IMG/VR virus record: IMGVR_UViG_2791355504_000004
Span: 1,527-65,526 of that record
Length of the DNA stretch: 64,000 nt
Source: a virus
Lineage: Duplodnaviria; Caudoviricetes
Direction: 5' to 3' (one strand)
The notes beneath the pieces are model-generated. The model searched no databases and was not told where the DNA came from. It saw nothing but the letters and a program-made list of their open reading frames with translations. Shown piece after piece: positions 4,087 to 64,000 of the stretch. Both the position numbers and the translations under genes were made by a program. Position 1 is the first letter of the stretch. Every line of letters starts with the position of its first letter.

Positions 4087-4428
4087 TTACGCGTCTTCGT
4101 GCTGGTTGTGTTCTTCAAATAATTGGCTGGTGTGATTTGCAAACAGGGTTACGTCACCGCCAGCATTGAAATGCATTGGAGATTTTGAAGTTGTGTCTTC
4201 AGTACGTTTGCCTTTAGCCGTTGGCTCAAGGTAAGCAAGGGTGTGCGCGATTTCGACCTGGCTAGAATCACCGATACGGGAAATATCCAGCGTGATTTTG
4301 ATTTGACCTTTTTTGTTGTTCTTTACAACGCCTTCGGCAACCATGCTGATAACAGCACCTAATTGGTTTGCGAAGACACCGCCGCTTAGATCGCCGATGA
4401 ATTGTTTTGCATTAGTGGGTTTTGACAT
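4087..4428 (-). CDS. YfdP-like phage protein, first gene of the leftward early operon
   Basis: FIGDLSGGVF...KKGQIKITLD...PTAKGKRTED pattern; adjacent to the YfdQ-like gene. Confidence 0.8.
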   Translation of the reverse strand: MSKPTNAKQFIGDLSGGVFANQLGAVISMVAEGVVKNNKKGQIKITLDISRIGDSSQVEIAHTLAYLEPTAKGKRTEDTTSKSPMHFNAGGDVTLFANHTSQLFEEHNQHEDA

Positions 4429-5980: not shown

Positions 5981-6919
5981 TCAACTCAATGGACGAGTAA
6001 TTGCATGGGATGAAAGAAATGTATCACACCTTTCACCGAATTTCTCTAAGCTCTGGGCACGTTGTTTTAAAAAGGTTAAGACTGTTTCCAAAGCTAAATA
6101 AGAAGGTAATTCTTCTATACCAGTTTCAATTATTTCATCCCCAATTAGATCTTGAAGATGTGTTTTCAACTCATTTTCAACTTTTTGAAATGCTTTTTGA
6201 TGTTCTAGTTTTGCTAACTCAAGTTCCTGCATCGTATTCTCATATTGGAATAACCCCGCCGATGCATTTCTATCATGTAATAGTTTTAAGTGTATATTGT
6301 TGGCGAATCCAATATGAGAACAATCGTAATTTAATAATTGAGATTCTTTCCAATCACCGCCATGCAAACATTCACCATGATCTATAAGGCTGAACGTTTT
6401 ATCTGGAAGGTGGATTGAATTACCCATATTTCTATCGGTATTTAAAATCCAATCATCGAATGCAATTAAATTTGATAAGTACTCCCAATCTTTCATACAT
6501 GAACTAAAGTATTCAACCATTACATTCATAATTGAAGGATTATTTTCAATTTCAATCCTAAGATTTTTCCCTTTTATGTCTTCAGTTACCCATGCAAATG
6601 TAAAGCCTCTATATCGATCAACCTCACTAAGTAAGTTGACAAAGTTAGGATCAAGTATTTTAGTTTCGAGTAATAGAAAACCAGCCCTAGGGGGCATAGG
6701 TAAATTTAGAGCTTTACCCAAAAGGTATCCAATCATTTCATTAATTAGACTTCTGGGTTTATTACCTGCATAAATTTTTACCCAGGAGTCTCTTTCAACC
6801 CCATCATTCCATTTTATGCTTGCCATATGAGTAGCCCCTGAGACACCATCAGTTGCACCTCTGAGATACTCAATATAATCTGAAGATTGTAAATATTGAA
6901 TTATTTGTGGTTCTATCAT
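5981..6919 (-). CDS. HipA-like Ser/Thr kinase
   Basis: VK lysine, NE glutamate, FDDWILNTDRNMGN catalytic loop, LIDHG motif. Confidence 0.88.
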   Translation of the reverse strand: MIEPQIIQYLQSSDYIEYLRGATDGVSGATHMASIKWNDGVERDSWVKIYAGNKPRSLINEMIGYLLGKALNLPMPPRAGFLLLETKILDPNFVNLLSEVDRYRGFTFAWVTEDIKGKNLRIEIENNPSIMNVMVEYFSSCMKDWEYLSNLIAFDDWILNTDRNMGNSIHLPDKTFSLIDHGECLHGGDWKESQLLNYDCSHIGFANNIHLKLLHDRNASAGLFQYENTMQELELAKLEHQKAFQKVENELKTHLQDLIGDEIIETGIEELPSYLALETVLTFLKQRAQSLEKFGERCDTFLSSHAITRPLS

Positions 6920-20148: not shown

Positions 20149-20964
20149 TTAACCTAAGAGCAGTTCTTTTGGATATTTAGGATCAAATTCATAAAGTAGA
20201 TCTAAAGGATGCTCATCGGTATTAAATCTTAAATGGCTAACCCAGGTTCTTAGCTCTTCATTATCTAAATCAAAGTCTGAATCTGGTGTAGGGTATGCAA
20301 ACTTTGCATCTTTAATAATCAAGGATGCATCTTCAGCAATTCTAATATCATCATAACTTTCCAAAGAAGGTCTTAAAAATCTGTTTGGAACATTGCGCTT
20401 TACTAAGTTCGCAAATTGCAATTCTGAAAATATCCATGGAGATGAAATATATTTATTTTCAGTCAATAAATTTTGTATATTGATAGAATTATCAGTACCA
20501 AGGAATAATAAGAGTTCGCAGCTATCAATCACGCGATGAAGAGCTGCATTCAAAATCATGAATACATTAGCTGTAGTATGGTTTCGTTTTTCGTAACTGT
20601 AAGTATGTGTTTGACTTTGATAGCAATATTTATCGTCAATTTTTCTTAATAAATCGTATGCGTTTGCCCATACACCAGAGTCTACAAAAACCTTTAATTT
20701 TGTATGGTATTCGATTTTTGCCGCAAGCTTAATTACATTTTCTTGATCAGCATGAGAATGGGATAAAAATATATCTGGTTTAACATTCGAAAATAGCTCA
20801 TTGTTGATTTTCTCAACATCAAAAACCTCATTTTCATTTAAAAGAAGGTTCTCTATATTAATTAAAATTTCATTATTTTTTGATTTGTATTCTTCTAAAG
20901 CTTTTGAAGGTAAAGGCCCATATAAAGAAAAATCAAAATTTTTAACATGAATAGCTTTGAACAT
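20149..20964 (-). CDS. TIR-domain protein
   Basis: DIFLSHSHAD, VFVDS, SSPWIFSE (catalytic Glu present). Confidence 0.88.
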   Translation of the reverse strand: MFKAIHVKNFDFSLYGPLPSKALEEYKSKNNEILINIENLLLNENEVFDVEKINNELFSNVKPDIFLSHSHADQENVIKLAAKIEYHTKLKVFVDSGVWANAYDLLRKIDDKYCYQSQTHTYSYEKRNHTTANVFMILNAALHRVIDSCELLLFLGTDNSINIQNLLTENKYISSPWIFSELQFANLVKRNVPNRFLRPSLESYDDIRIAEDASLIIKDAKFAYPTPDSDFDLDNEELRTWVSHLRFNTDEHPLDLLYEFDPKYPKELLLG

Positions 20965-41119: not shown

Positions 41120-41174
41120 CTAATAAAACAAATACTGAATAACCATACATGATATTTATAGTTGAGTAAGTGTC

Positions 41175-43103
41175 ATGTACGGCTTAAAAAAACGTTCAAA
41201 GCAAGATGAAAGTGGACAAATTCAAGGTGCAGGTACTGGCACTTCTGATGATATTAAAAAAACGGTACCCAGTGGCAGCTACATTATGCCTGCTGATTCT
41301 ACCCAAAAGATTGGGATTGATAATTTAAAAAATATGGGGAGTCCCACACCAGTCAATCTCAGTAACGGTGAATTCCAACTCTCGCCTGACCAAGTTCATT
41401 CGGTGGGTGTGCAAACACTTAATGCCATGAAAGATCAGACGCACATGCCTGTTGATCAACCTCAATTGGGTTTTAAGCCTGGCCAGAATAAACCTGAGTT
41501 ATTTTTTGCGAATGGTGGATTGGTATCAAGCCCTTATCCAAGCGCAGATGATATTCGACGAGCCCAACAAAATAGAGTTGGTGGGCCACAAATGCGTGAT
41601 GTCACACCAATTAATCGTCAACTTCCAGCAACATCAACTACACCTTCAACAACTAGCTCACCATCTGCAAGTCCAAGTAATACAGCACCAGCACAAGGTA
41701 GTAGTTTTGGTGCGGGGTTTAGTTCATTACGTCAAGGTATTAACCGTGCTGCAAATAGTAAACTTGGTAAATTGGGTACAGTTGGTGCTTTGGCAAGTAC
41801 AGGCTTTGCTGTAGGCGATACACCAACAGAACAATATCGTGAGCGTTTCGGTTTGGGTGATTATAATCCTGATGATTCTGATGGTATGCGATTTGCAAAA
41901 GATCTTGGTGTACGTGCTTTAGGTGCTGCATCTGATCTAGGTGTTGCCATGACATTAGGTCAGGCTGGTCGGTTTTATGCTGATAAACAACGTATTGCAA
42001 GTGAAGCAAAAGCAGCTCAACCTGAATTTAATGCTAAACAGAATAATCCAAATCCTGTTGTAAATAATCCATTTGGTAATCCTAAAGCACCACCTGTAAC
42101 TCAAACACAGCCTGAAGTCCAAACTCAATCAAGCACTGTACAGAATTCTGATCCTTATGTTATTCAGCAAAAAGGAAATAGCTTTAGTTATGCTAATCCT
42201 GGTGCAGCTGCCCAAGCACGAGCAGATGGAGTTCGAGAAGGTGAAGGGTTGGGCTTTAAAGTACGCCCTGCAAATGATCCTAAAGGTGTAGCAAATTTCA
42301 TGCAGAATACACGTGAGATGGGACCATCTGAACAACAGATTCAAAATGCAATCGCTCAACGTGAAATGAATTTAGGCTTGGGTATGCAAGGTTATGGCAA
42401 TAATTCTGTTCAGGCACCTCAGCGTAATGATGCACAGGAGGCAGAGCGCCAATCTGTAATTAAAGCAGCCAGTACACCAATTGCTGGTGCCAGAGGACTG
42501 ACAGCTAATCAAATCCGCACTTTATCTGATTTACAGCAAGGTGAGGATAATCGTGCGAGTCAACGTTATACGACTGATGCAAACAACGTCGCTGCTTTAC
42601 AGCGTGAAGCTATGGGGCAAGCTGGACAGAATTATCGTACAGAACTAGGTGAGCAAGGTACAAATAACCGATTTAATGCAAATTTAGGTTTTGATGCACA
42701 AAAGTTTCAAGCTACCAATGATTTGGCAAACCGAGAATTTAATTTAAATGCTACTGAGAAAGGCTTTGGGATTCGTAACTCGCAACGCTTAGAAAAATTG
42801 TATGAACAATATGATTCTGCGAAATCCGATGAAGATCGTAAATCAATTCAAGAAAAAATTAACCGTTATACAGGTAGTAAAGCTGATACAGGAAAAGATC
42901 GTTATATGACTGTAGGTGGTGGTCAAGAGTGGAATGAAAAGTCTGGAACTATGGTAAATAGACCTCAACAGTTATTTGATACACAATCTCAGCGGTTTAT
43001 TGATACGCCACAAGGAAAAACTGCACAACGAGCTGTTGGTACAATTTCTAAAGTAGGCGACAAAACCGCTGTTTGGGATGGTAAGGACTGGGTTCAACAG
43101 TAA
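41175..43103 (+). CDS. Probable DNA ejection (internal virion) protein
   Basis: GAGTGTSDDI/LSNGEF/FANGG motifs; low-complexity Q/A/N/G-rich; precedes the giant internal protein gene. Confidence 0.7.
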   Translation: MYGLKKRSKQDESGQIQGAGTGTSDDIKKTVPSGSYIMPADSTQKIGIDNLKNMGSPTPVNLSNGEFQLSPDQVHSVGVQTLNAMKDQTHMPVDQPQLGFKPGQNKPELFFANGGLVSSPYPSADDIRRAQQNRVGGPQMRDVTPINRQLPATSTTPSTTSSPSASPSNTAPAQGSSFGAGFSSLRQGINRAANSKLGKLGTVGALASTGFAVGDTPTEQYRERFGLGDYNPDDSDGMRFAKDLGVRALGAASDLGVAMTLGQAGRFYADKQRIASEAKAAQPEFNAKQNNPNPVVNNPFGNPKAPPVTQTQPEVQTQSSTVQNSDPYVIQQKGNSFSYANPGAAAQARADGVREGEGLGFKVRPANDPKGVANFMQNTREMGPSEQQIQNAIAQREMNLGLGMQGYGNNSVQAPQRNDAQEAERQSVIKAASTPIAGARGLTANQIRTLSDLQQGEDNRASQRYTTDANNVAALQREAMGQAGQNYRTELGEQGTNNRFNANLGFDAQKFQATNDLANREFNLNATEKGFGIRNSQRLEKLYEQYDSAKSDEDRKSIQEKINRYTGSKADTGKDRYMTVGGGQEWNEKSGTMVNRPQQLFDTQSQRFIDTPQGKTAQRAVGTISKVGDKTAVWDGKDWVQQ

Positions 43104-43107
43104 TACG

Positions 43108-43127
43108 TAGTCACCTTCTGGTGACTA
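43108..43127. terminator. Hairpin after ejection gene, upstream of CRISPR leader
   Basis: TAGTCACC-ttct-GGTGACTA. Confidence 0.55.
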
Positions 43128-43139
43128 TTAATTACATTG

Positions 43140-43279
43140 CATTTGCCCACCAATATTTTATGACTCTTTAATTGCTTAATAAAATCAATAGGTTATAAAC
43201 GTGAGTTAAAACTTTGGTCTTTTATGGATTTTTAGTATTAACTCGCTGTTATAACTTTATTTTTTGCTATAAAATTACT
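43140..43279 (+). promoter_or_regulatory. Type I-F CRISPR leader
   Basis: AT-rich ~140 bp; IHF consensus WATCAANNNNTTR = AATCAATAGGTTA at 43183-43195; extended -10-like TGCTATAAA next to the first repeat. Confidence 0.8.
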
Positions 43280-44207
43280 GTTCACTGCCATATAGGCAGC
43301 TTAGAAATTTTACTCCTAGCACTCCAAATGTTAAGCGTAGTTCACTGCCATATAGGCAGCTTAGAAATGCAGGGTTAAATGCAACAGCAGTACCATATGG
43401 TTCACTGCCATATAGGCAGCTTAGAAATAACTCCATCCATCCTGCACCAAGCCACTTCTGTTCACTGCCATATAGGCAGCTTAGAAATTACGAATCAGGT
43501 CAATACGCAGAGGTTTTGCGTTCACTGCCATATAGGCAGCTTAGAAATGAACGATAATTTCAGGAAATTGTGTTTCTTGGTTCACTGCCATATAGGCAGC
43601 TTAGAAAGCAAAGAAAGGCGAGAAGGGCGACCAAGGTATGTTCACTGCCATATAGGCAGCTTAGAAAATAAAAAAAGTTTACACGCTCATCGGTAGCCGG
43701 TTCACTGCCATATAGGCAGCTTAGAAATGATTCGTAAGGCATTCCTTAAGCTCCTGCAAGTTCACTGCCATATAGGCAGCTTAGAAATTCCTATTGATTC
43801 TCTTAACCCACTGCAGAACGTTCACTGCCATATAGGCAGCTTAGAAATTAAGAATCTCAACCAATCCTGCGAACGTCATGTTCACTGCCATATAGGCAGC
43901 TTAGAAAACCAACAAATGGCTCAACCCATTTTGTAATTCGTTCACTGCCATATAGGCAGCTTAGAAAATGAAGAATCAAAAGGTCAAGTTGGTCTATTGG
44001 TTCACTGCCATATAGGCAGCTTAGAAAGATCAGGGATGAATCAACAAAGCTATTTGTCAGTTCACTGCCATATAGGCAGCTTAGAAAACTTCATAAAAGC
44101 CTGCTTTTGTAAAATTGTCGTTCACTGCCATATAGGCAGCTTAGAAAATAATAAGTAAAAGCTATTTGATGCGTTCCTTGTTCACTGCCATATAGGCAGC
44201 TTAGAAA
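43280..44207 (+). CRISPR. Type I-F CRISPR array, 16 identical 28-bp repeats and 15 unique 32-bp spacers; no cas genes in window
   Basis: GTTCACTGCCATATAGGCAGCTTAGAAA every 60 bp from 43280 to 44180; CTGCC/GGCAG Cas6f-type hairpin. Confidence 0.99.
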
Positions 44208-44262
44208 ATCTAAAGATTATTTATATAACACCTAAACTGGTCATGGGAAAAAGCATAAAAAT

Positions 44263-44286
44263 AAAGCGACCTAATTGGTCGCTTTT
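44263..44286 (+). terminator. Terminator downstream of the array
   Basis: AAAGCGACC-taatt-GGTCGCTTTT. Confidence 0.75.
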
Positions 44287-44361
44287 GTTCACTTTTTATA
44301 TTGATAAACTATTTATAAAAGTGAAAAATAAAAATCTACTTTATAAACAGATGAATCTATT

Positions 44362-44571
44362 ATGATTAATTATGAATTAATTTTTGAAGAACTCCATGCT
44401 ATGCAACCCAAAGGAGTGAAATTTTTTAAAGATCATACATCACAAGAGTTTGAAGAATTAAATAACTTTCTAGAAGATAATCAATTTGAACTTGGAATAG
44501 AGATAAAACCCCATAGGGAGAGTCAAACTGGTCATCGAGCTATAGATGCAATTCTGGTTAAAAAGTTATGA
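44362..44571 (+). CDS. Small hypothetical protein
   Basis: 69 aa ORF between two terminators. Confidence 0.6.
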   Translation: MINYELIFEELHAMQPKGVKFFKDHTSQEFEELNNFLEDNQFELGIEIKPHRESQTGHRAIDAILVKKL

Positions 44572-44598
44572 TTTTTTGGGCTGAAAAATTTCAAAAAG

Positions 44599-44626
44599 AT
44601 ACCCCACAACTTAGATTGTGGGGTAT
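44599..44626. terminator. Bidirectional terminator
   Basis: ATACCCCACAA...TTGTGGGGTAT. Confidence 0.75.
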
Positions 44627-44631
44627 TTGTT

Positions 44632-45492
44632 TTACTTACTCGCTAAATATCTACCAGTTGTGAGTAATTCATTGCCATACACAAAATCAAGTAATCCGTC
44701 GAATTTTTTAGCAAACTCTGCAAGATTTATAGGGTAGTAGCCTTTAAGTAATGGCATGGCTGATAATTGCCCATCATCTCTGACTTGTACAAACCAAGAG
44801 TGGTAGTGACCACCGTTATATTCATTGTTGATTTGCTGTGCCACCTGAATGACTTGTTGAGGATATGGCAGGGCTTCGACTTCCTGTTTTTCAGATTTGG
44901 CTTTAATTTCCATTGTTTCTAAATAGTGAACTGCTTCTGGGAAATGGATTGCCAATAACTCAGCATAACGTGGAATTTTAAAGTGACGATTATGTCTAGC
45001 CCACATCTCAGCAAAGATTTTGCGCTCACCGCCTGAACGACGAGAAACAATTTCATGCAACAAGGCTTGCTGTTCTGGTGAGATGGATTGGCGGTCATTG
45101 ATTTTCCACTGCATTACCAAAGCATCGTAAGCACGAATCACAATCAAGTGGAACTTTGCGGAGATCCACATTGCATATGCGTAAACTATTTCTTTGACAG
45201 CGTACGTCCCACGATTATTACCACCATTGATTACTTTTACAGCACTTCTCATATTTGAGAAGTGGTTGTTTTCAATAAGGCTCATATCCGAGACTTGTTC
45301 AATCTCTTTAATTAACTCTTGAATTTGCTCAACACGTAAAAAGTTAGATGGCTTATGCTTAGCAAGATTGCCACTTGCTTTATGTAAATCAGCAAGTGAA
45401 TATCGCCCATCTTCGTCTTGGCGAATAATGAGTTCACCAATTACTAAAGGTTGGTTGTTTGGATTTAAAAGATTTTGTTGTATAGTAGTCAT
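44632..45492 (-). CDS. ant: Antirepressor (KilA-N domain plus C-terminal Ant-type domain)
   Basis: IRQDEDGRYSLADLHKAS, GTY...YAMWIS..F; W.R...HF....Y.EL. Confidence 0.88.
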   Translation of the reverse strand: MTTIQQNLLNPNNQPLVIGELIIRQDEDGRYSLADLHKASGNLAKHKPSNFLRVEQIQELIKEIEQVSDMSLIENNHFSNMRSAVKVINGGNNRGTYAVKEIVYAYAMWISAKFHLIVIRAYDALVMQWKINDRQSISPEQQALLHEIVSRRSGGERKIFAEMWARHNRHFKIPRYAELLAIHFPEAVHYLETMEIKAKSEKQEVEALPYPQQVIQVAQQINNEYNGGHYHSWFVQVRDDGQLSAMPLLKGYYPINLAEFAKKFDGLLDFVYGNELLTTGRYLASK

Positions 45493-45573
45493 GTTGACTT
45501 TCCTGTAAGTTGTTGACACATAAAACCTTGTTAATTCTTGGCGGAAGGCAAGGTTTTTTTGTGCCTGTTGATT

Positions 45574-45735
45574 TCATGCTTTTGCACTCTCTTGGGTTAG
45601 TAAAAGTTCAACAGCCTTATTCATTAAATAATTCATTGAACGCTCTTCTTTTTTAGCCTTTTCTTTCAAAGACTCATGCAATTCACCTTCTAGGCGGAAT
45701 CGCACATCTGTGGATTTTTTTTGCTTATTACTCAT
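45574..45735 (-). CDS. Arc-like RHH repressor (53 aa), not in ORF track
   Basis: Manual translation MSNKQKKSTDVRFRLEGELHESLKEKAKKEERSMNYLMNKAVELLL; AGGTGAG RBS. Confidence 0.85.
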   Translation of the reverse strand: MSNKQKKSTDVRFRLEGELHESLKEKAKKEERSMNYLMNKAVELLLTQESAKA

Positions 45736-45750
45736 AGTTCTCACCTAATT

Positions 45751-45836
45751 GCCACACTTTGTGGCGTTTGATAACTATAGCCACACTTTGTGGTAATGTA
45801 AATAGATCAAGACAACATTTTGCCACTTTTTGTGGC
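45751..45836. promoter_or_regulatory. Three palindromic operators between the divergent RHH genes
   Basis: GCCACACTTTGTGGC (45751), GCCACACTTTGTGGT (45780), GCCACTTTTTGTGGC (45822). Confidence 0.85.
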
Positions 45837-45847
45837 ATGAGGAATTT

Positions 45848-46174
45848 ATGAGCAACCAAGCTGACCACACAATTGTTAGATTGCGCGTTCCGCCTGAACT
45901 AAAATTAAAAATTGAAAAGTCGGCTGAAGACAATAATCGCTCTCAAAGCGCAGAAATGGTTTCGCGCCTTGAAAATAGCTTTATTTCAACTAGAGTTGCA
46001 TCGGACCCATATAAAAGAATGCTACTAGCTGTTATAGCGCAAGTTGTTGCGGAACAAGCAGATAAGGAAAAACCATCCTTCCAAGAAGCTATTGATAAAA
46101 TTACAAAAGCAATCATGGTAGATGAAGAGTGGTTTGATAAAGTTAATGGTCAATTAAAAAACCAAAAAAAGTAA
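45848..46174 (+). CDS. Arc/Mnt-like RHH repressor
   Basis: VRLRVPPELKLKIEKSA..NNRS..AEMV.RL. Confidence 0.88.
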   Translation: MSNQADHTIVRLRVPPELKLKIEKSAEDNNRSQSAEMVSRLENSFISTRVASDPYKRMLLAVIAQVVAEQADKEKPSFQEAIDKITKAIMVDEEWFDKVNGQLKNQKK

Positions 46175-46226
46175 GTCACTGGTGACTAAAATGCCGACTT
46201 AAAGTCGGCTTTAATTTCTTTTTAAA

Positions 46227-46835
46227 TTAATTACACTGCAATTGCCCACCAATATCTCGGCACATACGACCATTATTATAATAAGTGCCACTATTGCCAT
46301 TATAACGGTTGCCTTGATTATCCCAGCATCCAGATCCATCACAGTTAGTCATATGGGTTGGTGTTGGTGCTTGTGGCATTGGTGCTGAGTAAGAGTTATT
46401 TGAGTTTGAATAACTATCACCACTAGAAACATTTACACCATTCATTGCCGCAAGAGTATTGCGTTGATTAGCAGTTAACCCTTTTGAATTCTTATATGGT
46501 GTGCTCGCTTCATTAATAATTTTCTGTCTCAATGCTTCATTTTCAGCAGAACGTACCTGTTGACGTGTTTGGCTATAACTAGAGGTAGTATTATTTTGGT
46601 AAGGATTTACATAAGTATTTGGAATTGATGCATTTGATTTGAAAGTCTGTTTTTGTGTTTCCGTGGGTGTTCCTAAAGAGCGGATAGTTTCTATTTTTTG
46701 TTCTTTCATTCCTTGAGGTGGTTTTTTTCTGGAGTATGTAACATTACCTTTAGCATCAACCCATTTATAAATTTGTTGTGCATTCAAGTTAAAGGATAGA
46801 AGGATAGATAAAATTAGTATGAAATGTTTTAACAT
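46227..46835 (-). CDS. Exported DUF4124-like protein with a segment resembling the phage ejection protein
   Basis: Signal peptide ending LNA; IYKWVDAKGNVTYS..PP motif; Cys-containing C-terminus. Confidence 0.82.
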   Translation of the reverse strand: MLKHFILILSILLSFNLNAQQIYKWVDAKGNVTYSRKKPPQGMKEQKIETIRSLGTPTETQKQTFKSNASIPNTYVNPYQNNTTSSYSQTRQQVRSAENEALRQKIINEASTPYKNSKGLTANQRNTLAAMNGVNVSSGDSYSNSNNSYSAPMPQAPTPTHMTNCDGSGCWDNQGNRYNGNSGTYYNNGRMCRDIGGQLQCN

Positions 46836-46894
46836 CTGGATTCTCTATTTCTGATTATTATCATTTAAGATTGCTTTTTGAGCATTTTCAATAC

Positions 46895-46959: not shown

Positions 46960-49900
46960 ATGTCTGAGCAAAACCAAATTGATTGGGAAAAAGGGGAAAT
47001 TCAAGAACCAAGTCAAACTGATTGGGATTCTGGGGTAATTTCTCAATCGAAGGAAAAGAAGGAAAAAGGTTTTCTTGGACAAGCAAAAGATCATACTATT
47101 TCATTTGTAGGTAAAGGTGCTGTAGCTGGCGGGCAAATATTGGTTGGACTTTCTGATTTAATGTCTGATGGTGCGACTGGCAAGGTTTTATCTGAAAAAT
47201 TTGGTTATGACCCGAAAGCTACTAATCAAGAAATGACCAGATGGCAAACTCCACAATTACAAGAACAAATAAATCAAAAAGCCCAACTTCCTATACAAAA
47301 AATAGAAGAGGAAGATGACATTCCAACAACAGTTGGGAAGCTCTTTAATAACTCAAAAGAATATTTGAAATTCTACAAAGACAATCCCGCAATGATTAGC
47401 AATAGTGTTGCAGAATCCTTAATTCCAATAGGAGTTAGTGCTGCACTTGGTCGAGGTACAGGTATTGCTAATCCTATTGTTGCTGCTTCGGTTGGCGAGG
47501 GTATTGGAATGGCGGGCAGCCAAGCTGAACAAATTCGCCAAGAGACTGTAGATGGACGCTTAACAGCAGATCAATCCTTAGCAAGTGCAACAACAGGTGC
47601 CCTTGGCGGGTTGATTGGCTTTGCTGGTGGTCGTCTTGCCCAGAAAATGGGAATTGGTGATGTAGATACCATGCTTGTAACGGGGCGAGCTGGTCCAGCA
47701 GAAATTGCTGGTGAGATTGCTTCAATGCCTGCGAAGTCTTTACCTCGTCGTATGGTTGAAGGTGCTATTTCAGAAGGATTTTTAGAAGAATTACCCCAAT
47801 CCGTTTCTGAACAAATTTTACAGAACTTGGCATTAGATAAGCCTTGGAGTGACGGTATTGAAGATGCCGCTGTCATGGGCACATTGGCTGGTATGGCAAT
47901 GGGTGGTGGTGCCAATATCTTGTCTGGCCATAATGCTGAAAATGAACAGCAACGAGCGATAGAAAAAAATAAGGAGCTGTCTGAAGCTGAATATCAAAAA
48001 ACCTTGCTAGATGAATACCATCTACGTTCGCAACAGGAACAAGAGAAGGTTTGGAATGCAAAAGATGATGAGAATTTTTTAGCTAATATATCTCATCATA
48101 TCAATAATATGAATGGACGATACCTGAATCAACCCACAGAGGAAATGGGTGATTTAGGTAACCAGATTGGTACAAGTATTAATCCCAACTTACTTGAATT
48201 TAATTCAAATAATGATCCTGATGCACCAATTAATCCTAATCCAACAAACACACCTAACCCAGATAGCCCACTTTCTCCGAGTGGTGGAAACTATTTTGAT
48301 GATACTCAAACACAGTTACAGCTACCGTCAGAACGCTTGGGTATTAATCCAAGTGATGGACCAATGTCATCAGCAGCAGCTTTGGCGGTGGATAGTGGTG
48401 CTTCACCAGTTGCACAATTAAGTTTTACCCCAGAACAACAGGATAGTAATTCGCCATTAAGTGATGCTGTACCATCTAATTACCAATCGCTACTTGATAG
48501 CCAGACAAACCAATCACAGATTGATTATCTTGAACAACAGTTTACAGATGCTAAAAGTGTGCCTAAAAAGGCCGAGATTCGTAAACAAATTGATGAACTC
48601 AAAACTAGCAATCCCATTACTGAAAATCAGACAAAACCTGTATTTAATACTGACGCTAATCTTTCTGTTGGGTCACTTCCTTGGTCAAAGGATATTGCTA
48701 GTCAGGCTTTACAGCAGTATCAGGGTGATACCAATTCGTTAGAGCAAACAAATCAATCTTTAACGGGAAAAGGCGCAGCGACTGATCTTATTTACTATAA
48801 AAACTCACCATCATTTAGTAATGTTGAAGTTGTTGATGCAGGTGATAAATCGATTGTTAAGTTGACCAATGCTAAGACAGGTCAAGTGGTTGAGCGTGAG
48901 TATCCGCAGGAGTTGTCACGATTTAATCAGTTCTTGGAGGGTACGGTAAATCAAAGTACAGAACAATTAGATATTCCACCAGAAACAAAACAAGTTTCAA
49001 CGATCGTACCGCTAAGTGAACAACTTACTCAGCTTGAACAACAGTTCTCAGCAGCTAAGACTGTTCCGCAGAAAGCCAAATTGCGTAGACAGATCGAAAC
49101 TTTGAAACAAGGGAATAATACATTCAATCCCGAAGTATTGGACCATGGTGTTTTAAATGTGCCTTTAGCTAAACGCGGTAATATTGATGCCCAAATTGAT
49201 CAATACAAGTCTGAGCAAAGTAAATTATTAAAAGATCAAAGTGAAACCAAAAAAAATGAACATAAGGCAGCTCAGAATCAAGCAAAGCCTTTGTTTGAAG
49301 CATTAACAGCAGAACATATTAATACTTATGCAAATAAGGCTGGAATCAATGCTGCAAATGCTAAATCAGAATTAAAAAGCATGGCGCATTGGCAACCTCA
49401 AAAAGCAATGAAGGTTTTTGAGGCTTTAAAGTCAATTTCGGAATCGAATTCATCTCCAATTGACACGAATGCACATGAAGCGGCTACGAGTCCACAAAAT
49501 GATTTACCAGCACCAACACAAGCGCAGATTGAAGCTGGCAATTATAAAAAGGGGCACATTAAAGTTCAGGGCTTAGATATAGCTGTTGAAAACCCTCGGG
49601 GTTCATCTCGTTCAGGTAAACGACCTGATGGAACAGAATGGTCGCATGAAATGAGTGACCACTATGGATACATCAAACGGACTACTGGTGCCGATAATGA
49701 GCACATTGATACTTATATAGGGAGTAACCCAGATTCAAACCAGGTATTCATTGTAGATCAGCTTGACCAAAAAACAGGTAACTTTGATGAGCACAAGGTT
49801 ATGCTTGGATTTAACAGTCAGGAAGATGCTACCACAGCATATAAATCAAACTTTGATAATGGATGGATAGTAGGTCCTATCCGTACTATGGATATGGAAC

Positions 49901-51981
49901 AGTTTAAAAACTGGCTTAAAAATGAGGATACCTCAAAACCTGCCAATGAAATAAAGGCTGATTCCCTTATCACTCACGGTGCGAATGTTAAAGCGCAATC
50001 CGAACAAGGCTTAAATACTTATACTCAGATTCAATCTGATTCAGGCTTAACCCATAGCATCCCTAGCAAACTAATGGATCAGGTACATAAGTTAGGCAGT
50101 ATTGCGAATGACTTGTCGAGCATAAAAACGGAAGGTGTAAAAACCAATGTGCTGTATGGCAAACGATTGTTGGCCAAGATTGCAAAGCTTAATCCTGATG
50201 TGCAGGTGCACATTGTTTCTGATTTGATCAATATTAAAGACAAAACTACTCGATCTAGACTTAGTTCAGGTGGTTTTTATATCCCTGATCAGAACATTTT
50301 GTATATTTATCCTAAGACGGAACTTTGGGAAGGTTCAGTTTTAGAGCTAATAAACCATGAGTTGACACATACTGTCACAGAGCAATCGATTACCAAAAAC
50401 CAAGTATCCAATGAAAATTTAGATAAACTTGAACAATTTAGAAGTATTCTAGGGGAATATATTTGGAATCAAGGTGAGAACCTTGATGAAAATATGGCTG
50501 AAAGATTGCGTTATGCATATGAGCAGGACTTTCCTCATGAATTACTTGCGGTGAGTGCTGCTGAAACCAATGTGCGTGAAGTTTTTAAAACAATGCTTGG
50601 TCAGGATGGATTCAAGCAATTAGATGCAATATTTACCGAAATTTCTACCAATCAGTTCAAAGAGAAACGAGATGATCGATTATCCACACGAGGTCAAAGT
50701 CAGCAGCCGAGTCGAGATCGCGCAGAAAATATATCAACAAGCGACACCAGAACAGCAAAATCAGATGGAGCCACTGCTCACTCAAGTGATGGAGTTACAG
50801 TCTCAACCGCAGACAAATCATCAGGAACGAAAGAAAGTTCAGCACGAGCTGCTCAAATTAATGAATCAAATGGCTCATATTCTGACAACGGACGTAAAAG
50901 TGTTTTCAAAGATTCAGGAAGGGGTAGCAGAGAAGCACTGGGAGGAATATCTGAAGAAGATAAACAGTTAAAAAAGAATAATGAAAAGAAACGTTTTAGC
51001 CATGCTAATAAAGCAGTTGAATCATCTACAGTAGCTCAAATTCGAGAAGTCTTGGTTAACCATTTTGGGGAAAAGACAATCAATGAGCTTGAACGTCAGG
51101 GTAAGCTTGAAATTATTCAAGACTATGCTGTAGATGGAGTAGAAGGATTTTATTACAACGGTAAAGCCGTTCTTATTGCATCAAATCTTACTCTTGAAAG
51201 TGCTGTGCCAACATTCTTACATGAGTTGGGTGGCCATGCTGGTTTTCAAAATATGATGAACCAGGAGCAATATAAGGAGTTAATGCGTCAGTTTGATAAG
51301 TTGGTCGAACAAGGTAATCCAGTTGCTATGGCGGCTAAATTACTTGCAGAACGCGAACAAGGCAGCGTTCGCCAACAACTTGAATATTTACCATATCTAT
51401 TAACGCTTTCATCAACGATGCAGCAACGTAATGTAATTCAACGCAATGCTCTTCAAAAATTGATCCGCAATATCGTCGCATATGTGAAAGCATGGGCATT
51501 TGATCGATTTGGTATAAATCTAAACCTAAATCCAGATGATATATTGGCGTTATCGGAACGCATGATTAAACAGATTGAACGCCAGACCTCAATGGATACT
51601 GTTCGCCAAAAATATCAGGGCACGAGTCAATGGATGACTGCTCCCAATGGGGCGAAGACGCATCTGTCAGAACAGCAATGGTTGCAGGTTCGTACGCCAG
51701 AATTTAAGAAATGGTTTGGTGACTGGGAAAATGATGCAGAGAATTCCTCTCAGATCTTAGATGAGAATGGGGAACCTAAGGTTGTCTATCATGGTACTTC
51801 CAGTGAATTTAATGAGTTTAGAAAAGGTCATGGTTTATTAGGTGAGGGTATTTATTTAACTGATAGTTTTGATACTGCTGATATGTACGCCAATGTCCGT
51901 GGTAAAAATGGTTTTGTATTACCTTTATTCGTGAATATTCGCAATGCATTTAAAACGACTGGTAATGTCTCTCGAGATTAA
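46960..51981 (+). CDS. Large polyvalent internal virion protein, N-terminal part (InPase-like, zincin-like, start of ART-like domain), ending at an in-frame TAA
   Basis: EAGNYKKGH...HYGYI...GAD..HID; HELTH and HELGGH; RTPEFKKWFGDW...GEPKVVYHGT. Confidence 0.85.
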   Translation: MSEQNQIDWEKGEIQEPSQTDWDSGVISQSKEKKEKGFLGQAKDHTISFVGKGAVAGGQILVGLSDLMSDGATGKVLSEKFGYDPKATNQEMTRWQTPQLQEQINQKAQLPIQKIEEEDDIPTTVGKLFNNSKEYLKFYKDNPAMISNSVAESLIPIGVSAALGRGTGIANPIVAASVGEGIGMAGSQAEQIRQETVDGRLTADQSLASATTGALGGLIGFAGGRLAQKMGIGDVDTMLVTGRAGPAEIAGEIASMPAKSLPRRMVEGAISEGFLEELPQSVSEQILQNLALDKPWSDGIEDAAVMGTLAGMAMGGGANILSGHNAENEQQRAIEKNKELSEAEYQKTLLDEYHLRSQQEQEKVWNAKDDENFLANISHHINNMNGRYLNQPTEEMGDLGNQIGTSINPNLLEFNSNNDPDAPINPNPTNTPNPDSPLSPSGGNYFDDTQTQLQLPSERLGINPSDGPMSSAAALAVDSGASPVAQLSFTPEQQDSNSPLSDAVPSNYQSLLDSQTNQSQIDYLEQQFTDAKSVPKKAEIRKQIDELKTSNPITENQTKPVFNTDANLSVGSLPWSKDIASQALQQYQGDTNSLEQTNQSLTGKGAATDLIYYKNSPSFSNVEVVDAGDKSIVKLTNAKTGQVVEREYPQELSRFNQFLEGTVNQSTEQLDIPPETKQVSTIVPLSEQLTQLEQQFSAAKTVPQKAKLRRQIETLKQGNNTFNPEVLDHGVLNVPLAKRGNIDAQIDQYKSEQSKLLKDQSETKKNEHKAAQNQAKPLFEALTAEHINTYANKAGINAANAKSELKSMAHWQPQKAMKVFEALKSISESNSSPIDTNAHEAATSPQNDLPAPTQAQIEAGNYKKGHIKVQGLDIAVENPRGSSRSGKRPDGTEWSHEMSDHYGYIKRTTGADNEHIDTYIGSNPDSNQVFIVDQLDQKTGNFDEHKVMLGFNSQEDATTAYKSNFDNGWIVGPIRTMDMEQFKNWLKNEDTSKPANEIKADSLITHGANVKAQSEQGLNTYTQIQSDSGLTHSIPSKLMDQVHKLGSIANDLSSIKTEGVKTNVLYGKRLLAKIAKLNPDVQVHIVSDLINIKDKTTRSRLSSGGFYIPDQNILYIYPKTELWEGSVLELINHELTHTVTEQSITKNQVSNENLDKLEQFRSILGEYIWNQGENLDENMAERLRYAYEQDFPHELLAVSAAETNVREVFKTMLGQDGFKQLDAIFTEISTNQFKEKRDDRLSTRGQSQQPSRDRAENISTSDTRTAKSDGATAHSSDGVTVSTADKSSGTKESSARAAQINESNGSYSDNGRKSVFKDSGRGSREALGGISEEDKQLKKNNEKKRFSHANKAVESSTVAQIREVLVNHFGEKTINELERQGKLEIIQDYAVDGVEGFYYNGKAVLIASNLTLESAVPTFLHELGGHAGFQNMMNQEQYKELMRQFDKLVEQGNPVAMAAKLLAEREQGSVRQQLEYLPYLLTLSSTMQQRNVIQRNALQKLIRNIVAYVKAWAFDRFGINLNLNPDDILALSERMIKQIERQTSMDTVRQKYQGTSQWMTAPNGAKTHLSEQQWLQVRTPEFKKWFGDWENDAENSSQILDENGEPKVVYHGTSSEFNEFRKGHGLLGEGIYLTDSFDTADMYANVRGKNGFVLPLFVNIRNAFKTTGNVSRD
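50672..50971 (+). CDS. Candidate overprinted gene (99 aa, +1 frame) inside the polyvalent protein gene
   Basis: Helical protein-like sequence coinciding with an S/R/G-rich linker of the main frame; AGAGAAACGAG upstream of ATG. Confidence 0.5.
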   Translation: MIDYPHEVKVSSRVEIAQKIYQQATPEQQNQMEPLLTQVMELQSQPQTNHQERKKVQHELLKLMNQMAHILTTDVKVFSKIQEGVAEKHWEEYLKKINS

Positions 51982-52017
51982 GTTGTAGAAGCCACCCGAT
52001 CAGGCAAGTATCAAGGG

Positions 52018-54843
52018 GTGGTTCATCATTTTGATGATCATGAGTATATTGTTGCTCTTGAGTCTAATCAGGTCAAAATGGCTGAAGGGAATACTGGTAC
52101 ATTCAATAGTGAAAGTGCAGATATTCGATTCAGCCGTTCTGCGAAGGATATTATTGATAAACTTGGTAAAGACCTTAAAGGTACTACGGTCCAATCAATT
52201 AAAGATAAAACTGGTTATAAGTTTACTGATTGGTTGGGTATTAGTTTATCGGCTCTAGGTCGTCGTCAACTCACTGAGATTTACAGTAAAATTTTGCCAC
52301 AGCTAAATAAATATAATGAACTGGCTACTCAAATGGATGCGGATAAGAATGATGCTGGTGCAGAAGCTGATAGCATTGTTCGGGAATGGTCGAACCTTAA
52401 AGATGAAGAGCAACTTGCAGAGCTTATGCATGATGCAACTTTGGCAATGATTGATCCCGTAAAACCTTATAAATCTGGTGATAATAAAGCGAAGTATCAG
52501 CAGCTATTACATGCATACAACGACCTGACTCCAGAAGCTCAAGCGATGTATAAAAATGCGCGTGATGCCTATAAAAAACATTACACCAAAGTACATCAGG
52601 CCATTAAAGAACGGATTATGCGCGCCGAACTTTCGAGTGAAAAGAAAGCCGATTTAATGAAGCAAATGGATGACAATTTCTTTAATGGTCGGATTAAAGG
52701 TGTTTATTTTCCATTAGCACGCTTCGGTAAATATGTGGTTTTGATGCATAACCAAAATGGGCAAATCGAAAGTGTAAGTCGTGCAGAAACCATGGCAGAG
52801 GCACAGCGTTTACGTTCTGAATTGATGCAGAAATATCCACACTTCAAAGTAGACCGTGTCATTTTAGATAAAGAATTTAATGCATCACGTGATGGCGTAG
52901 GCCGTGGCTTTATGACCAGTTTATTTGCAGAAGTAGACAATCTTGGATTATCAACAGCAGAGCAGGCTGAATTTGAAGATACATTGAGTCAATTGTATTT
53001 GTCTTCTATGCCAGATTTAAGTTGGGCAAAACATGGTATTCATCGTAAAGGCACTGCTGGATTTAGTCAGGATGCACGTCGGGCATTTGCGCAAAATATG
53101 TTTCATGGAGCAGGGTATCTCGCTAAACTGCGATATGGCGATCAGTTAGCACAGCAGCTTGATGATATGCAGAAATATGCATCTGAACAAAGCAAGCTAA
53201 ATGACAGTTATGACCAGCCTACGGCTCAACGTGTCATTGATGAAATGAACAAATGCCATGACAATTTAATGAATCCTAAATCTCATCCATTATCGAGTGC
53301 TTTAACCAGTTTAGGCTTTATTTATTACCTTGGCTTGTCACCAGCTTCAGCATTGGTCAACTTATCGCAGACAGCATTAGTCGCGTATCCGATTATGGGT
53401 GCCAAATGGGATTTCGATAAAGCAGCCCAAGAGTTGTTGAAGGCATCAAATGATTTTAGAAAAGGGGTTGAGTTCCACAAAGTGAAATGGGAGGGAACTA
53501 AAACCGACCTTTATAAAACCATGAGTGCAGACATTTCTAAATTCCTGAGCAAGGATGAAAAGCAGGCTTACGATGATGCTGTAGCTAGAGGTGTGATTGA
53601 TGTTACACAGGCACATGATTTAGCTGGTATTGCACAAGGTGAAGATAGTGGTGTGATGTGGAAGACACGTCCAATTATGCGTGCAGCAAGTGTGATGTTT
53701 CACCATGCAGAGAGATTTAACCGAGAAGTTACTTTTATAGCTGCATATCGATTAGCTCGAAAAGCAGGTTCAAGCCATGATTCAGCCTTTGATCAAGCGG
53801 TTGATGTAACCTATAAAGGTCATTTTGACTATAGCTCAGGAAACCGCCCACGTATTATGCAGGGCAATGTTGCTAAGGTCCTTCTGCTGTTTAAACAGTT
53901 TGGCCAGAACATGATTTACACATTAGCGCGTCAGACCTATCAATCAATTAAAGCTGAAACAGCAGCAGAGCGAAAAGAAGCTCGTAAAACACTTGGGGCA
54001 ATTTTAGCAATGCATGCAACATTTGCTGGTACGCTTGGTTTACCAATGGTAGGGATGCTGTTATCTGTAGCATCATGGATGGGTGGAGATGACGACGATC
54101 CTTGGGATGCAGAAGTTGCATTACGGAACTATCTAGCTGAAGCTTTTGGACCAACTATTTCAAATCTATTAATGAAAGGTGCACCTCGTGCACTGACACC
54201 TCTCGATATGTCGGGACGCGTAGGTATTAATAATTTGTTATTACCAGATGTACAAGAAGGTCTTGAAGGTAAACGTTGGGCTGAATCTGCTATGGCTGGT
54301 GCATTAGGCCCTGTTGCAGGTATAGGCCTGAATGTTGCGAAAGGTGCACAAGAAATTTCAGAAGGGCATAATTTACGTGGCATAGAAACGATGCTTCCAG
54401 TGTTCTTAAAGAACTTTGCCAAAACTTATCGTTATGGTGAGGAAGGTGTACAGGACAAAACGGGTGTATCCATCATGGACGAAGTCAGTTCAATGGATTT
54501 ACTTGTCCAAGGTATGGGTTTTTCTCCATCTGATGTACGCACGGCCAATGAAGGTAAATCAGCAATTTATCAGCTTGATAAAAAATTAAATGAACGTCGT
54601 GGTCGCTTAATGGCTTTATGGTCCAGAGCCAAATTGATGGATGATCAAAATGAGATGGACGAAATTTGGGAAGAAATTCAAGGATTCAATGAAAGAAATC
54701 CATCTCGTCGTATCACTCGAGTCAATTTGAATCAGAGTTATAAGAATCGTCAACGTCGTATTGATCGTTCTGAAGATGGCATTTATTTGTCACGGAATAG
54801 ACAAGATGCCCGAAGTGCCGGTTATTTTGCATTTGGTGAGTAG
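52018..54843 (+). CDS. Large polyvalent protein, C-terminal part with PLxRFG domain; same frame as 46960-51981
   Basis: YFPLARFGKY motif; in frame after a single TAA. Confidence 0.85.
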   Translation: MVHHFDDHEYIVALESNQVKMAEGNTGTFNSESADIRFSRSAKDIIDKLGKDLKGTTVQSIKDKTGYKFTDWLGISLSALGRRQLTEIYSKILPQLNKYNELATQMDADKNDAGAEADSIVREWSNLKDEEQLAELMHDATLAMIDPVKPYKSGDNKAKYQQLLHAYNDLTPEAQAMYKNARDAYKKHYTKVHQAIKERIMRAELSSEKKADLMKQMDDNFFNGRIKGVYFPLARFGKYVVLMHNQNGQIESVSRAETMAEAQRLRSELMQKYPHFKVDRVILDKEFNASRDGVGRGFMTSLFAEVDNLGLSTAEQAEFEDTLSQLYLSSMPDLSWAKHGIHRKGTAGFSQDARRAFAQNMFHGAGYLAKLRYGDQLAQQLDDMQKYASEQSKLNDSYDQPTAQRVIDEMNKCHDNLMNPKSHPLSSALTSLGFIYYLGLSPASALVNLSQTALVAYPIMGAKWDFDKAAQELLKASNDFRKGVEFHKVKWEGTKTDLYKTMSADISKFLSKDEKQAYDDAVARGVIDVTQAHDLAGIAQGEDSGVMWKTRPIMRAASVMFHHAERFNREVTFIAAYRLARKAGSSHDSAFDQAVDVTYKGHFDYSSGNRPRIMQGNVAKVLLLFKQFGQNMIYTLARQTYQSIKAETAAERKEARKTLGAILAMHATFAGTLGLPMVGMLLSVASWMGGDDDDPWDAEVALRNYLAEAFGPTISNLLMKGAPRALTPLDMSGRVGINNLLLPDVQEGLEGKRWAESAMAGALGPVAGIGLNVAKGAQEISEGHNLRGIETMLPVFLKNFAKTYRYGEEGVQDKTGVSIMDEVSSMDLLVQGMGFSPSDVRTANEGKSAIYQLDKKLNERRGRLMALWSRAKLMDDQNEMDEIWEEIQGFNERNPSRRITRVNLNQSYKNRQRRIDRSEDGIYLSRNRQDARSAGYFAFGE

Positions 54844-61187: not shown

Positions 61188-62204
61188 TCATGCTGCAACT
61201 AACATCTTTGCAATTTCAGAAGCAGTAGGATTGTAATATGTGTTTACAAGTACGCTAATGGTTTTATGCCCTGTAATTTTAGCGAGAATTTCGACAGGTA
61301 GCTTATAGTTATGCACAAACCGAGTGATTGCTTCATGGCGTGTATCATGGAAATGAATTTTACCATCTAGGCCAACACGACGAAGATTGCGCTCCCAAAC
61401 TAATCTGAATGAATTCGATGTATGAGGGATGAGGCGATAATCACCTTCTGGAATATCAATCCACGTTAGCATTTCTTTAGCTCGAGCAGTTAATGGTACA
61501 TCACGATTGGTACCGTTTTTGGTATCAAATAGTTTGATGTAATCTTCAAATATATGCTCTTTACGTATACCTAAAATTTCACCTTTACGCATTGCTGTTT
61601 CAAGCGCGAATAAGAAGCCCCACGCAATAAAGTGCCTTGGTTGGGTTGGTTCTTTACCCCAGTGGTAATCCAACCCTTTTAAAATGGTTTCTTCATCTTC
61701 TTTAAATATACGTTGATGACGTGCAGGTGGGGTAGTTGGCTTTGAAATTTCTTTAAAGGGGTTATCTTTCGTCAAAAATAACTCTTTGCGGGCATAGTCA
61801 AATACAGAGCTGTACAAACCCATTTGACGAATGACAGTTCCTGATTTAACAGATTTAAGACGTTTATCTCGCCATTGCTTTACTTTGATAGGGGATAGAT
61901 CATGAATAGATTCTTCTGCTAAATCACCCCATTGGCTTTTTAAAGACTTAAGTTGCTGCAAAATAAAGGCAGCACTTTTCATTCTTTTACCAACTTCATT
62001 GTAGTATTGGTCAAGAAGGGAGTAAAAAGAGATATGAATTTTTTCAGCTTCCTCGGATTGAGGAGCTGAAGATTGTAGTTCGAGTAGTTTCTTTGCCGCC
62101 CATTGTTCGCATTCTTGAGCTGTATCTCGGGTCGCTGTGAAGCGATTTCCTTTGTAGCGAACAACAATACGCCAAGCATTGCCGCGTTTGACAGGTTTTT
62201 GCAT
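61188..62204 (-). CDS. int: Tyrosine recombinase (prophage integrase)
   Basis: TAMRKGEI (R), TKNG (K), FHDTRH, GHK, YY catalytic set; GGAG RBS before MQKP. Confidence 0.95.
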   Translation of the reverse strand: MQKPVKRGNAWRIVVRYKGNRFTATRDTAQECEQWAAKKLLELQSSAPQSEEAEKIHISFYSLLDQYYNEVGKRMKSAAFILQQLKSLKSQWGDLAEESIHDLSPIKVKQWRDKRLKSVKSGTVIRQMGLYSSVFDYARKELFLTKDNPFKEISKPTTPPARHQRIFKEDEETILKGLDYHWGKEPTQPRHFIAWGFLFALETAMRKGEILGIRKEHIFEDYIKLFDTKNGTNRDVPLTARAKEMLTWIDIPEGDYRLIPHTSNSFRLVWERNLRRVGLDGKIHFHDTRHEAITRFVHNYKLPVEILAKITGHKTISVLVNTYYNPTASEIAKMLVAA

Positions 62205-62216
62205 ATACACTCCAAA

Positions 62217-62282
62217 TTTCTGGTGTCGCAACGGCACCAAAATTTAGAAAAGGACAAAAGACCCTAACTTTTTTGGTGTCGG
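62217..62282. promoter_or_regulatory. Candidate integrase arm-type sites in the att region
   Basis: TGGTGTCG at 62221 and 62274, inverted CGGCACCAAAA at 62232, related TTGGTGCCGCA at 61166. Confidence 0.5.
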
Positions 62283-62414
62283 TGCGGAAATATAAAGCGT
62301 TTTTTAATGCGAAATTTGATTATTTTGAATAACCAAAGCTGACCTATCGACAATAAAAAACAAGCCGAAAAGTCCTAAAAACCTTTCAGCTTATTGATTT
62401 TAAAGAATAAATTT

Positions 62415-62490
<76 letters not shown>

Positions 62491-62554
62491 AATATGGATG
62501 TGCATTATAGAGAGTTTAATTTTACTGTCAACTCTCTATAATGCAATTGCTGAA

Positions 62555-63976
62555 TTAATCAGCACGACGCCATACAGTACCTTGGCGTGTATCTTCCAAA
62601 ACCACACCCTGATCCAATAGTGACTGACGAATGCCGTCAGCTTTTGCGAAATCCTTCGCTTTCTTCGCATCTTGACGTTGTTGAATGAGATCTTCAATGT
62701 CTGCTTCAGACAAGCCTAAAGCTTCTTGCCCAATATCTGACTTTAAAAACTCTTTAACGTCATGCTGTACCAGACCTAGAATGTTGGTGAGGTGACGCAA
62801 CGTTGAATAATAAATTGCTGCTTGTTCAGCATTTTCTTCTTTGACTGAACGATTGAGCTCTTTGTTAATTTCAAACAACACAGCAATTGCTTCGGCGGTA
62901 TTAAAGTCATCACGCATTGCAGCATTAAAACGTTCAACCAAAGCATTATCTAGCTGTTCAACCACATTGGTGCCGTATATTTGTTGATAGGCTTTGAATG
63001 AATGGTAGAAACGGCTTAATGTAGTTTTTGCTTCTTTTAAAGCCACATCTGAGAAGTTCACTGGGCTACGATAGTGTGAAGACACAATAAAGTAACGAAT
63101 GACTTCAGGATGGAATTTATCCATTACATCACGGATGGTGAAGAAGTTGCCTAAAGACTTCGACATTTTTTCGCCATCCACGTTAATAAAGCCCACGTGC
63201 ATCCAATAATTTACATATTGTTCGCCTGTCGATGCTTCACTTTGGGCAATTTCATTTTCATGGTGTGGGAACATGAGGTCCGAACCACCACCATGAATGT
63301 CAAAATGGTTGCCTAAGCAGCATGTTGACATGGCAGAACATTCAATATGCCAACCCGGACGGCCATTGCCCCAAGGCGAAGCCCAAGCAGGCTCATTTTC
63401 TTTGGCATGTTTCCAGAGTACGAAGTCGAAAGGATGTTTTTTCTCAACTTCCACATCAACGCGTTCCGATGCACCTGCTTGCATATCGTCAAGTTTACGA
63501 CCTGAAAGACGACCATATTTTGCAAATTTTTCTACTTGGAAATATACATCACCATTAGTTGCAGGGTAGGCTGTACCTTTATTAACCAAATTACCAATCA
63601 TGCTTTGCATTTGGTCAATATACTCTGTCGCGCGTGGTGCTTCATCGGGGTGTAAACAGCCCAAATTCTCAGCATCTTCATTCATAGCTTGAATAAAGCG
63701 GTCGGTAAGCGCAGTAATGCTTTCACCATTTTCGTTGGCGCGTTTAATAATTTTGTCGTCAATATCAGTAATGTTACGAACGTATTTGACGTTCCAGCCC
63801 TGACTACGTAAAAAACGAATGATATAGTCGAATGCAACCATTACACGCGCATGTCCAATATGACAGTAGTCGTAGACGGTCATGCCGCAGACATACATGT
63901 CGATATGACCTTCTTTACGCGGTACAAATTCTACTTTTTTACGTTGCTCTGAATTGTAAAGAACAAAAGGTTGCAT
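62555..63976 (-). CDS. cysS: Cysteine--tRNA ligase (host gene)
   Basis: [25 protein letters not shown] motifs. Confidence 0.98.
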
Positions 63977-64000
63977 AGGGCTTACATATTGCGATAACAA

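Follow-up and report, generated by a model that had tools for sequence, protein, structure and literature searches.

The window, by which we mean the whole stretch of 64,000 nucleotides analysed here, makes up most of a 65,526-bp IMG/VR record that is classed there as a provirus and estimated by CheckV to be complete. On its plus strand, at positions 43280–44207, lies a type I-F CRISPR array of 16 identical 28-nt repeats and 15 spacers of 32 nt, a length found in all 15 spacers, as in type I-F. A CRISPR leader of 130 nt (43150–43279, plus strand) stands directly 5′ of the first repeat, and spacer 1, which adjoins it, is thus the newest spacer. The repeat folds into a 5-bp stem closed by a 5-nt loop and followed by eight unpaired nucleotides as a tail; in type I-F repeats, this 8-nt tail constitutes the 5′ handle of the crRNA and is associated with the Cas6f cut site. 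At the opposite end, 56 nt 3′ of the last repeat, a consensus scan alone picks out a terminator-like hairpin (44263–44285, plus strand).

The array is carried by a temperate Acinetobacter prophage that lacks cas genes. The genes upstream of it encode a P22-type portal, capsid, adaptor and large virion proteins, those downstream a KilA-N anti-repressor-like protein, an Arc-like protein, polyvalent proteins, an endolysin and a tyrosine integrase, and an S24 repressor is also present in the window. A Pfam scan detected no Cas family in 46 of the 47 window ORFs of at least 150 aa (an ORF at 16536–17030, nested in a larger one, was left out), and a cas operon would not fit into the first 1526 bp of the record, which precede the window. 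What appears to be the right end of the prophage (61188–64000) comprises the tyrosine integrase gene (61188–62240, minus strand) and a tRNA-Gly gene (62415–62490, minus strand), after which host sequence follows with cysS, the gene for cysteinyl-tRNA synthetase.

Leader and array share a 3.8-kb segment (43104–46885) with the KilA-N anti-repressor-like gene, the Arc-like gene and a DUF4124 gene (Pfam). We regard this segment as a cargo insertion because the flanking tail and polyvalent-protein genes nearly adjoin in 4 of 14 related phages (L068, L069, L074 and L075), where the polyvalent-protein gene begins approximately 100–180 nt after the tail gene. The slot is thus nearly empty in these four and holds other cargo of about 1.2–3.9 kb in the rest; the array is absent from all 14. 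Directly after the slot, at 46960–54843, stand two very large ORFs of 1673 and 941 aa with polyvalent-protein domains (InPase, ART-PolyVal and LPD39). Elsewhere in the window, matches below the curated Pfam cut-offs weakly indicate a TIR domain and a HipA-like kinase at 20149–20964 and 5981–6919; these ORFs lie antisense to or beside core phage genes and are possible prophage defence cargo.

Both the repeat and the leader resemble those of host chromosomal arrays. The exact repeat is present in 44 genome loci, nearly all of them from Acinetobacter, and an exact-match search found it in no other IMG/VR contig. Over its 130 nt the leader shares 91% identity with that of an A. pragensis array (L033) and 71–86% with those of 16 other loci from Acinetobacter and related bacteria. 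In two loci that carry the same exact repeat, the homologous leader lies directly 3′ of cas6f: in L052 (6701–7999), repeat and leader stand beside Cas_Csy4 (cas6f) and Cas_Csy3 (csy3), an arrangement of the I-F1 type, and in L031 (713–2356) beside Cas_Csy4 (cas6f) and Cas5fv_helical, of the I-F2 type. The leader homology begins at about the point where the intergenic region between cas6f and the array begins in the host loci. We note that one exact repeat with a homologous leader thereby serves operons of both the I-F1 and the I-F2 type in different Acinetobacter species. Among the 695 distinct spacers collected from the 44 genome loci with this repeat, none of the 15 prophage spacers was found. 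By its repeat, its spacer length, its PAM (see below) and the I-F loci that share its repeat, the array is type I-F; with the adjacent cas operon missing, it is an orphan.

Two of the spacers, spacer 4 (43488–43519) and spacer 8 (43728–43759), both read on the plus strand, had been predicted from the letters of the array to overlap on opposite strands and thereby to disclose each other's PAM. The overlap is borne out: the last 10 nt of the reverse complement of spacer 4 are the first 10 nt of spacer 8 (TGATTCGTAA), and among the 15 spacers, taken in either orientation, this is the only pair with a suffix-prefix overlap of at least 7 nt. When the 15 spacers were shuffled with their mononucleotide composition kept, an overlap of at least 10 nt arose in 19 of 20,000 shuffles. 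Within the merged sequence of 54 bp, the two bases 5′ of each protospacer are supplied by the other spacer, and they are CC both times, a dinucleotide that makes up 4.3% of dinucleotides on the real target.

That target is a natural contig. Spacer 8 has one exact match in the metagenome collection, in the locus L053, a stretch of 4572 bp from a 40,442-bp metagenome contig, and a script check confirms that L053 4334–4387 is identical to the 54-bp merge of spacers 4 and 8. The flank of the spacer 8 match therefore holds spacer 4, as it should if the merged sequence has a single contiguous source. Spacer 4 matches L053 4334–4365 on the minus strand and spacer 8 matches 4356–4387 on the plus strand, each with 0 mismatches and each with the CC PAM that the other spacer had foretold. 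The two protospacers are arranged head to head, one on each strand, with the same 10 bp at the PAM-proximal end of both, and the PAM of each falls at positions 11–12 of the other.

The genes of L053 are on the minus strand. An ORF of 322 aa (3402–4370) matches the PHROG family of major head proteins (E 2e-49), an ORF ending at 4374 matches families of virion proteins, and two collagen-like tail fibre genes come next. The 54-bp site takes in the final codons and the stop of the upstream virion gene and a short spacer with the ribosome-binding site, and then the major head gene from its ATG through the 12 codons that follow. Spacer 4 lies inside codons 2–12 of the head gene; spacer 8 runs from the end of the upstream virion gene across the ribosome-binding site and over head codons 1–5; and the 10 bp common to both comprise the end of codon 2 and codons 3–5. 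Bases 1 and 2 of the Pro-2 codon form the PAM of spacer 4, and the complement of bases 1 and 2 of the Gly-6 codon forms that of spacer 8. The original prediction had also read the merged site as an open frame, which lies on its plus strand. These 18 codons are indeed open, but it is the other strand that carries the genes, and the plus-strand peptide is rejected as a product of the target in favour of a junction between two minus-strand virion genes.

The target phage belongs to an uncultivated lineage with genomes of about 41 kb. Three relatives in IMG/VR (G248, G249 and L056) have head proteins that are 78–81% identical to that of the target, and two of the three are records of approximately 41.5 kb with terminal repeats. 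Among isolates, Proteus phages come nearest by head protein, with 57–62% identity. A search of the three relatives for a tyrosine integrase found none, so the target is perhaps no competing prophage. Between the window and the target phages, blastn aligns only six of the spacers and tblastx gives 0 matches at E below 1e-8, and it is because of this lack of protein-level similarity that we call the target unrelated to the carrier.

Spacers 4 and 8 are not alone on this contig. Spacer 5 (43548–43579) matches L053 4270–4301 on the plus strand with 0 mismatches and a CC PAM, in the major head gene; spacer 6 (43608–43639) matches 3190–3221 on the minus strand with 2 mismatches and a CC PAM, in a collagen-like tail fibre gene; spacer 7 (43668–43699) matches 92–123 on the plus strand with 0 mismatches and a CC PAM, in a virion structural gene; and spacer 12 (43968–43999) matches 3936–3967 on the minus strand, again in the major head gene and with 0 mismatches, with TC rather than CC as its 5′ flank (all four spacers being read on the plus strand of the window). 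Six of the 15 spacers (4, 5, 6, 7, 8 and 12) hence map within 4.3 kb of L053, and five of the six protospacers carry a 5′-CC flank, to be set against the CC frequency given above. This clustering partly reflects coverage, as 4572 of the 40,442 bp of the target contig were read. Were all 15 spacers spread evenly over the contig, at least five of the other 14 would fall in these 4572 bp with P = 0.015.

The relatives of the target extend the picture, as they carry collinear, diverged matches to spacers 2, 4, 5, 7, 8, 10 and 12. Two of these spacers are placed by the relatives. Spacer 2 (43368–43399, plus strand) finds protospacers with 4–5 mismatches and a CC PAM in G248, G249 and L056, approximately 330 nt upstream of the head gene, and spacer 10 (43848–43879, plus strand) matches G248 with 4 mismatches (flank CT) and G249 with 7 mismatches (flank CC), collinear with the other matches. 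In 40 sets of shuffled-spacer controls there was no match at 7 or fewer mismatches. Eight of the 15 spacers (2, 4, 5, 6, 7, 8, 10 and 12) thus point to one phage lineage and to about 7.4 kb of its structural module (in G248 coordinates). The earlier proposal that one locus of one invader had been sampled twice, through priming or conflict with a specific rival, is strengthened by both counts, that on the contig and that on the lineage.

The other seven spacers (1, 3, 9, 11, 13, 14 and 15) have no match at 6 or fewer mismatches in 440 kb of other loci, and none at 7 or fewer elsewhere in the window. Against sequenced phages, spacer 4 gives only partial chance matches, as does spacer 8, with matches of at most 20 nt; the whole array likewise yields chance matches only (E of at least 0.006), for instance 24–28 nt of spacer 6 to tail fibre genes of unrelated phages. 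Plasmids and 247 Acinetobacter genomes, of which 75 matched, returned other I-F arrays only and no protospacers when searched with the array as a whole. An exact match to spacer 8 is absent from IMG/VR and from the species genomes, and neither five genomes nor the 247 Acinetobacter genomes contain one at 3 or fewer mismatches.

The deviations from perfect matching are also of note. The two mismatches of spacer 6 stand at spacer positions 12 and 24, and both are synonymous third-codon positions. In type I complexes, every sixth position of the spacer is flipped out and left unpaired, and positions 12 and 24 are multiples of six. Spacer 12, the oldest of the eight, is the one with the TC flank, of which the T is the third base of a Gly codon; a CC variant there would therefore be synonymous (GGC/GGT). 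The relatives have TC or AC at this flank, and no CC variant was seen among them. We conjecture that the TC flank marks either a PAM-escape mutant or a priming site, a non-consensus flank being the kind that may prime rather than interfere. A slipped or flipped uptake of spacer 12 was considered and rejected, as no CC lies within 6 nt of the 5′ flank and the other end is flanked by TT.

Taken together, spacers 4 and 8 are probably separate I-F uptakes from a single site of a foreign phage, made by a primed or interference-driven route with a host I-F system used in trans. The need for a host system in trans follows from the prophage having no cas genes of its own, and spacer 4 is the younger of the two because it is nearer the leader. 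In the proposed sequence of events, the older spacer 8 would guide the host Csy complex to L053 4356–4387, Cas1:Cas2-3 would load on the displaced strand and travel 3′ to 5′, and the 32 bp beside the first GG met, inside the R-loop, would be captured as spacer 4. Spacers 12, 10, 8, 7, 6, 5, 4 and 2 could then be read as the record of repeated rounds on the same structural module. The array would be transcribed, processed and used by the resident host I-F system in trans, so that the lysogen, and with it the prophage, would be protected from the target phage.

We infer priming itself from geometry and clustering, and with it the order of events and the reliance on Cas proteins of the host. If spacer 8 is taken as the guide, the plus strand of L053 is the one displaced. 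Between 4321 and 4420 this strand contains only one GG, at 4366–4367, which is the PAM of spacer 4 and lies inside the R-loop, and the 32 bp 5′ of it are exactly the spacer 4 protospacer. The pair thus appears to have the geometry of a primer and its nearest product. In the work of Staals et al. (2016, PMC5059440), 60–65% of the protospacers acquired first were on the displaced strand near the priming protospacer, to its 5′ side, and spacers with a perfect match promoted further uptake in like manner; a distance gradient with a strand flip at the priming site is described by Vorontsova et al. (2015, PMC4678832). Two limits apply to this geometry. Spacers 7, 6 and 5 were acquired between spacers 8 and 4, and spacer 4 is therefore not literally the first uptake after spacer 8. 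In addition, where 394 CC sites stand in 4.5 kb and sampling is dense, an overlapping pair among six spacers is no rarity if clustering is taken as given. Applied to the whole series, the strand rule is followed with respect to the nearest older neighbour by five of seven later spacers and broken by spacers 7 and 5, which in this underpowered test is not significant (p about 0.23).

A separate question is where the array was when these spacers were taken up. Our tentative answer, held at somewhat less than even odds, is that the cas-less array is a live substrate of host I-F adaptation, with which the prophage builds primed memory against an unrelated phage and carries it between Acinetobacter hosts of the I-F1 and I-F2 kinds; uptake would then have occurred while the array was already in the phage. 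The strongest competitor, which we consider unlikely but still deserving of weight, holds that recombination brought the array into the prophage from a chromosomal I-F locus of a host, most or all of the spacers included, the prophage being a carrier only. Capture would account for a leader and a repeat that are host-like and for a homology that begins near the start of the cas6f–array intergenic region, and it accords with the position of the array in a variable 3.8-kb cargo island, with its absence from the site in every related phage and with the lack of the exact repeat in any other IMG/VR contig. Medvedeva et al. (2019, PMC6858448) point out that recombination with host arrays may supply mini-arrays of phages with spacers. 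Against capture, without deciding between the two routes, stands the comparison with the host loci, whose 695 spacers include no match to the 15 of the prophage, as does the retention of an intact 130-nt leader, which canonical adaptation needs.

Public sequencing runs show the array region in further samples. These runs were followed as Logan contigs only, through the pieces listed for each, and such contigs break at every repeat. An isolate (X1, word share 0.84) and a wastewater metagenome from another study (X2, word share 0.75) both contain the two flanks, together with several repeat-spacer-repeat units, at 0 differences; X1, possibly close to the source of the window, is not an independent sample. 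Two other runs hold the leader junction (X5, 43130–43307; X7, 43130–43209) and the trailer junction (from 44180) with 1 difference each, and among the pieces listed for them none covers the array spacers cleanly. In each of the four runs this repeat is also seen around other spacers, perhaps those of host arrays. At leader positions 43215, 43236, 43237 and 43245, X1 and X2 differ from the window and X5 has the letters of the window.

Priming itself has one competitor, in which the spacers are independent naive uptakes made during repeated infections and their cluster marks a hot spot, such as a DNA end or the first DNA injected. All mapped spacers do fall in one structural module, as a hot spot would have it, and the global strand test is not significant, with spacer 7 breaking the priming rule. 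We nevertheless consider this explanation improbable: in a native I-F system priming is more than 500 times as efficient as naive uptake (Staals et al. 2016, PMC5059440), the step from spacer 8 to spacer 4 has the geometry that is specifically expected of a displaced-strand scan, and the contig breakpoints differ in the three relatives, so that no fixed genome end can be placed beside the cluster. Finally, that the 10-nt overlap is a coincidence between unrelated spacers has nothing in its favour beyond the shortness of the overlap and can be dismissed, given its rarity in the shuffles, the CC at both revealed PAMs and, above all, a natural contig on which the two protospacers overlap exactly as predicted.

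The preferred reading, primed uptake with host Cas proteins, combines a known behaviour with a known setting: type I-F primed or targeted adaptation in a virus-borne array without cas genes. The case, though a clean natural example, is unlikely to surprise a CRISPR specialist. The behaviour resembles that described for Pectobacterium atrosepticum and Pseudomonas aeruginosa (Richter et al. 2014, PMC4117759; Vorontsova et al. 2015, PMC4678832; Staals et al. 2016, PMC5059440) in the 32-nt spacers, in the GG/CC PAM, in the clustering of spacers from one replicon near older protospacers and in the geometry of spacers 8 and 4. Unlike those assays, as set out there, the present case is a natural array in a prophage without cas genes, with protospacers that overlap by 10 bp. 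A limited literature search on overlapping spacers and CRISPR found no I-F paper on overlapping spacer pairs, which does not prove that there is none.

Among virus-borne arrays, the mini-arrays described by Medvedeva et al. (2019, PMC6858448) are similar, in the portion cited, in their viral location, the lack of cas genes, the repeats of host type and the spacers against another virus, and the prophage array, like them, has a host-like leader. They differ, on the same portion, in having 1–2 spacers against close relatives, whereas here 15 spacers, an unrelated target and a bacterial temperate carrier are found. A virus of A. baumannii with a I-F system directed against the prophage DgiS1 (Rubio et al., bioRxiv 10.1101/2023.09.20.558655) shares the genus, the I-F type, a mobile viral carrier and the concentration of spacers on one phage, to judge from the part of the preprint cited, where escape by PAM mutation is also discussed. 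That element brings its own cas genes, whereas the prophage here brings a leader and an array only. ICP1 likewise bears a I-F array with many spacers against one specific antagonist; unlike the prophage, it is a lytic phage with Cas proteins of its own and another repeat.

What the pair of spacers adds is that two spacers of one array can validate each other. Before any database match was known, their overlap had foretold how the target would read, which PAMs it would have and how the strands would lie, and the match bore out all three. Where the targets of an array are unsequenced, an overlap of this kind therefore offers an inexpensive check from within the array, both on whether acquisitions are real and on priming. 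The locus also appears to offer a natural example from Acinetobacter of a prophage that carries a leader and an array only and would rely on host Cas proteins, with over half of the memory in the array aimed at one unrelated phage. If spacer uptake by the array continues, prophages would act as mobile vehicles for adaptive immune memory.

A second, smaller array occurs among the related phages. In L072, at 5785–5871 on the minus strand, two degenerate I-F repeats enclose one 32-nt spacer, just upstream of the homologue of a 642-aa tail gene. The spacer does not match the L072 copy of that gene; it matches the first bases of the gene in 10 of the 14 loci of related phages (L072 being one of the 14) with 3–6 mismatches and a CC PAM, and in the window it matches 41149–41180 with 4 mismatches and a CC PAM. 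This is the classic pattern of exclusion between sibling phages.
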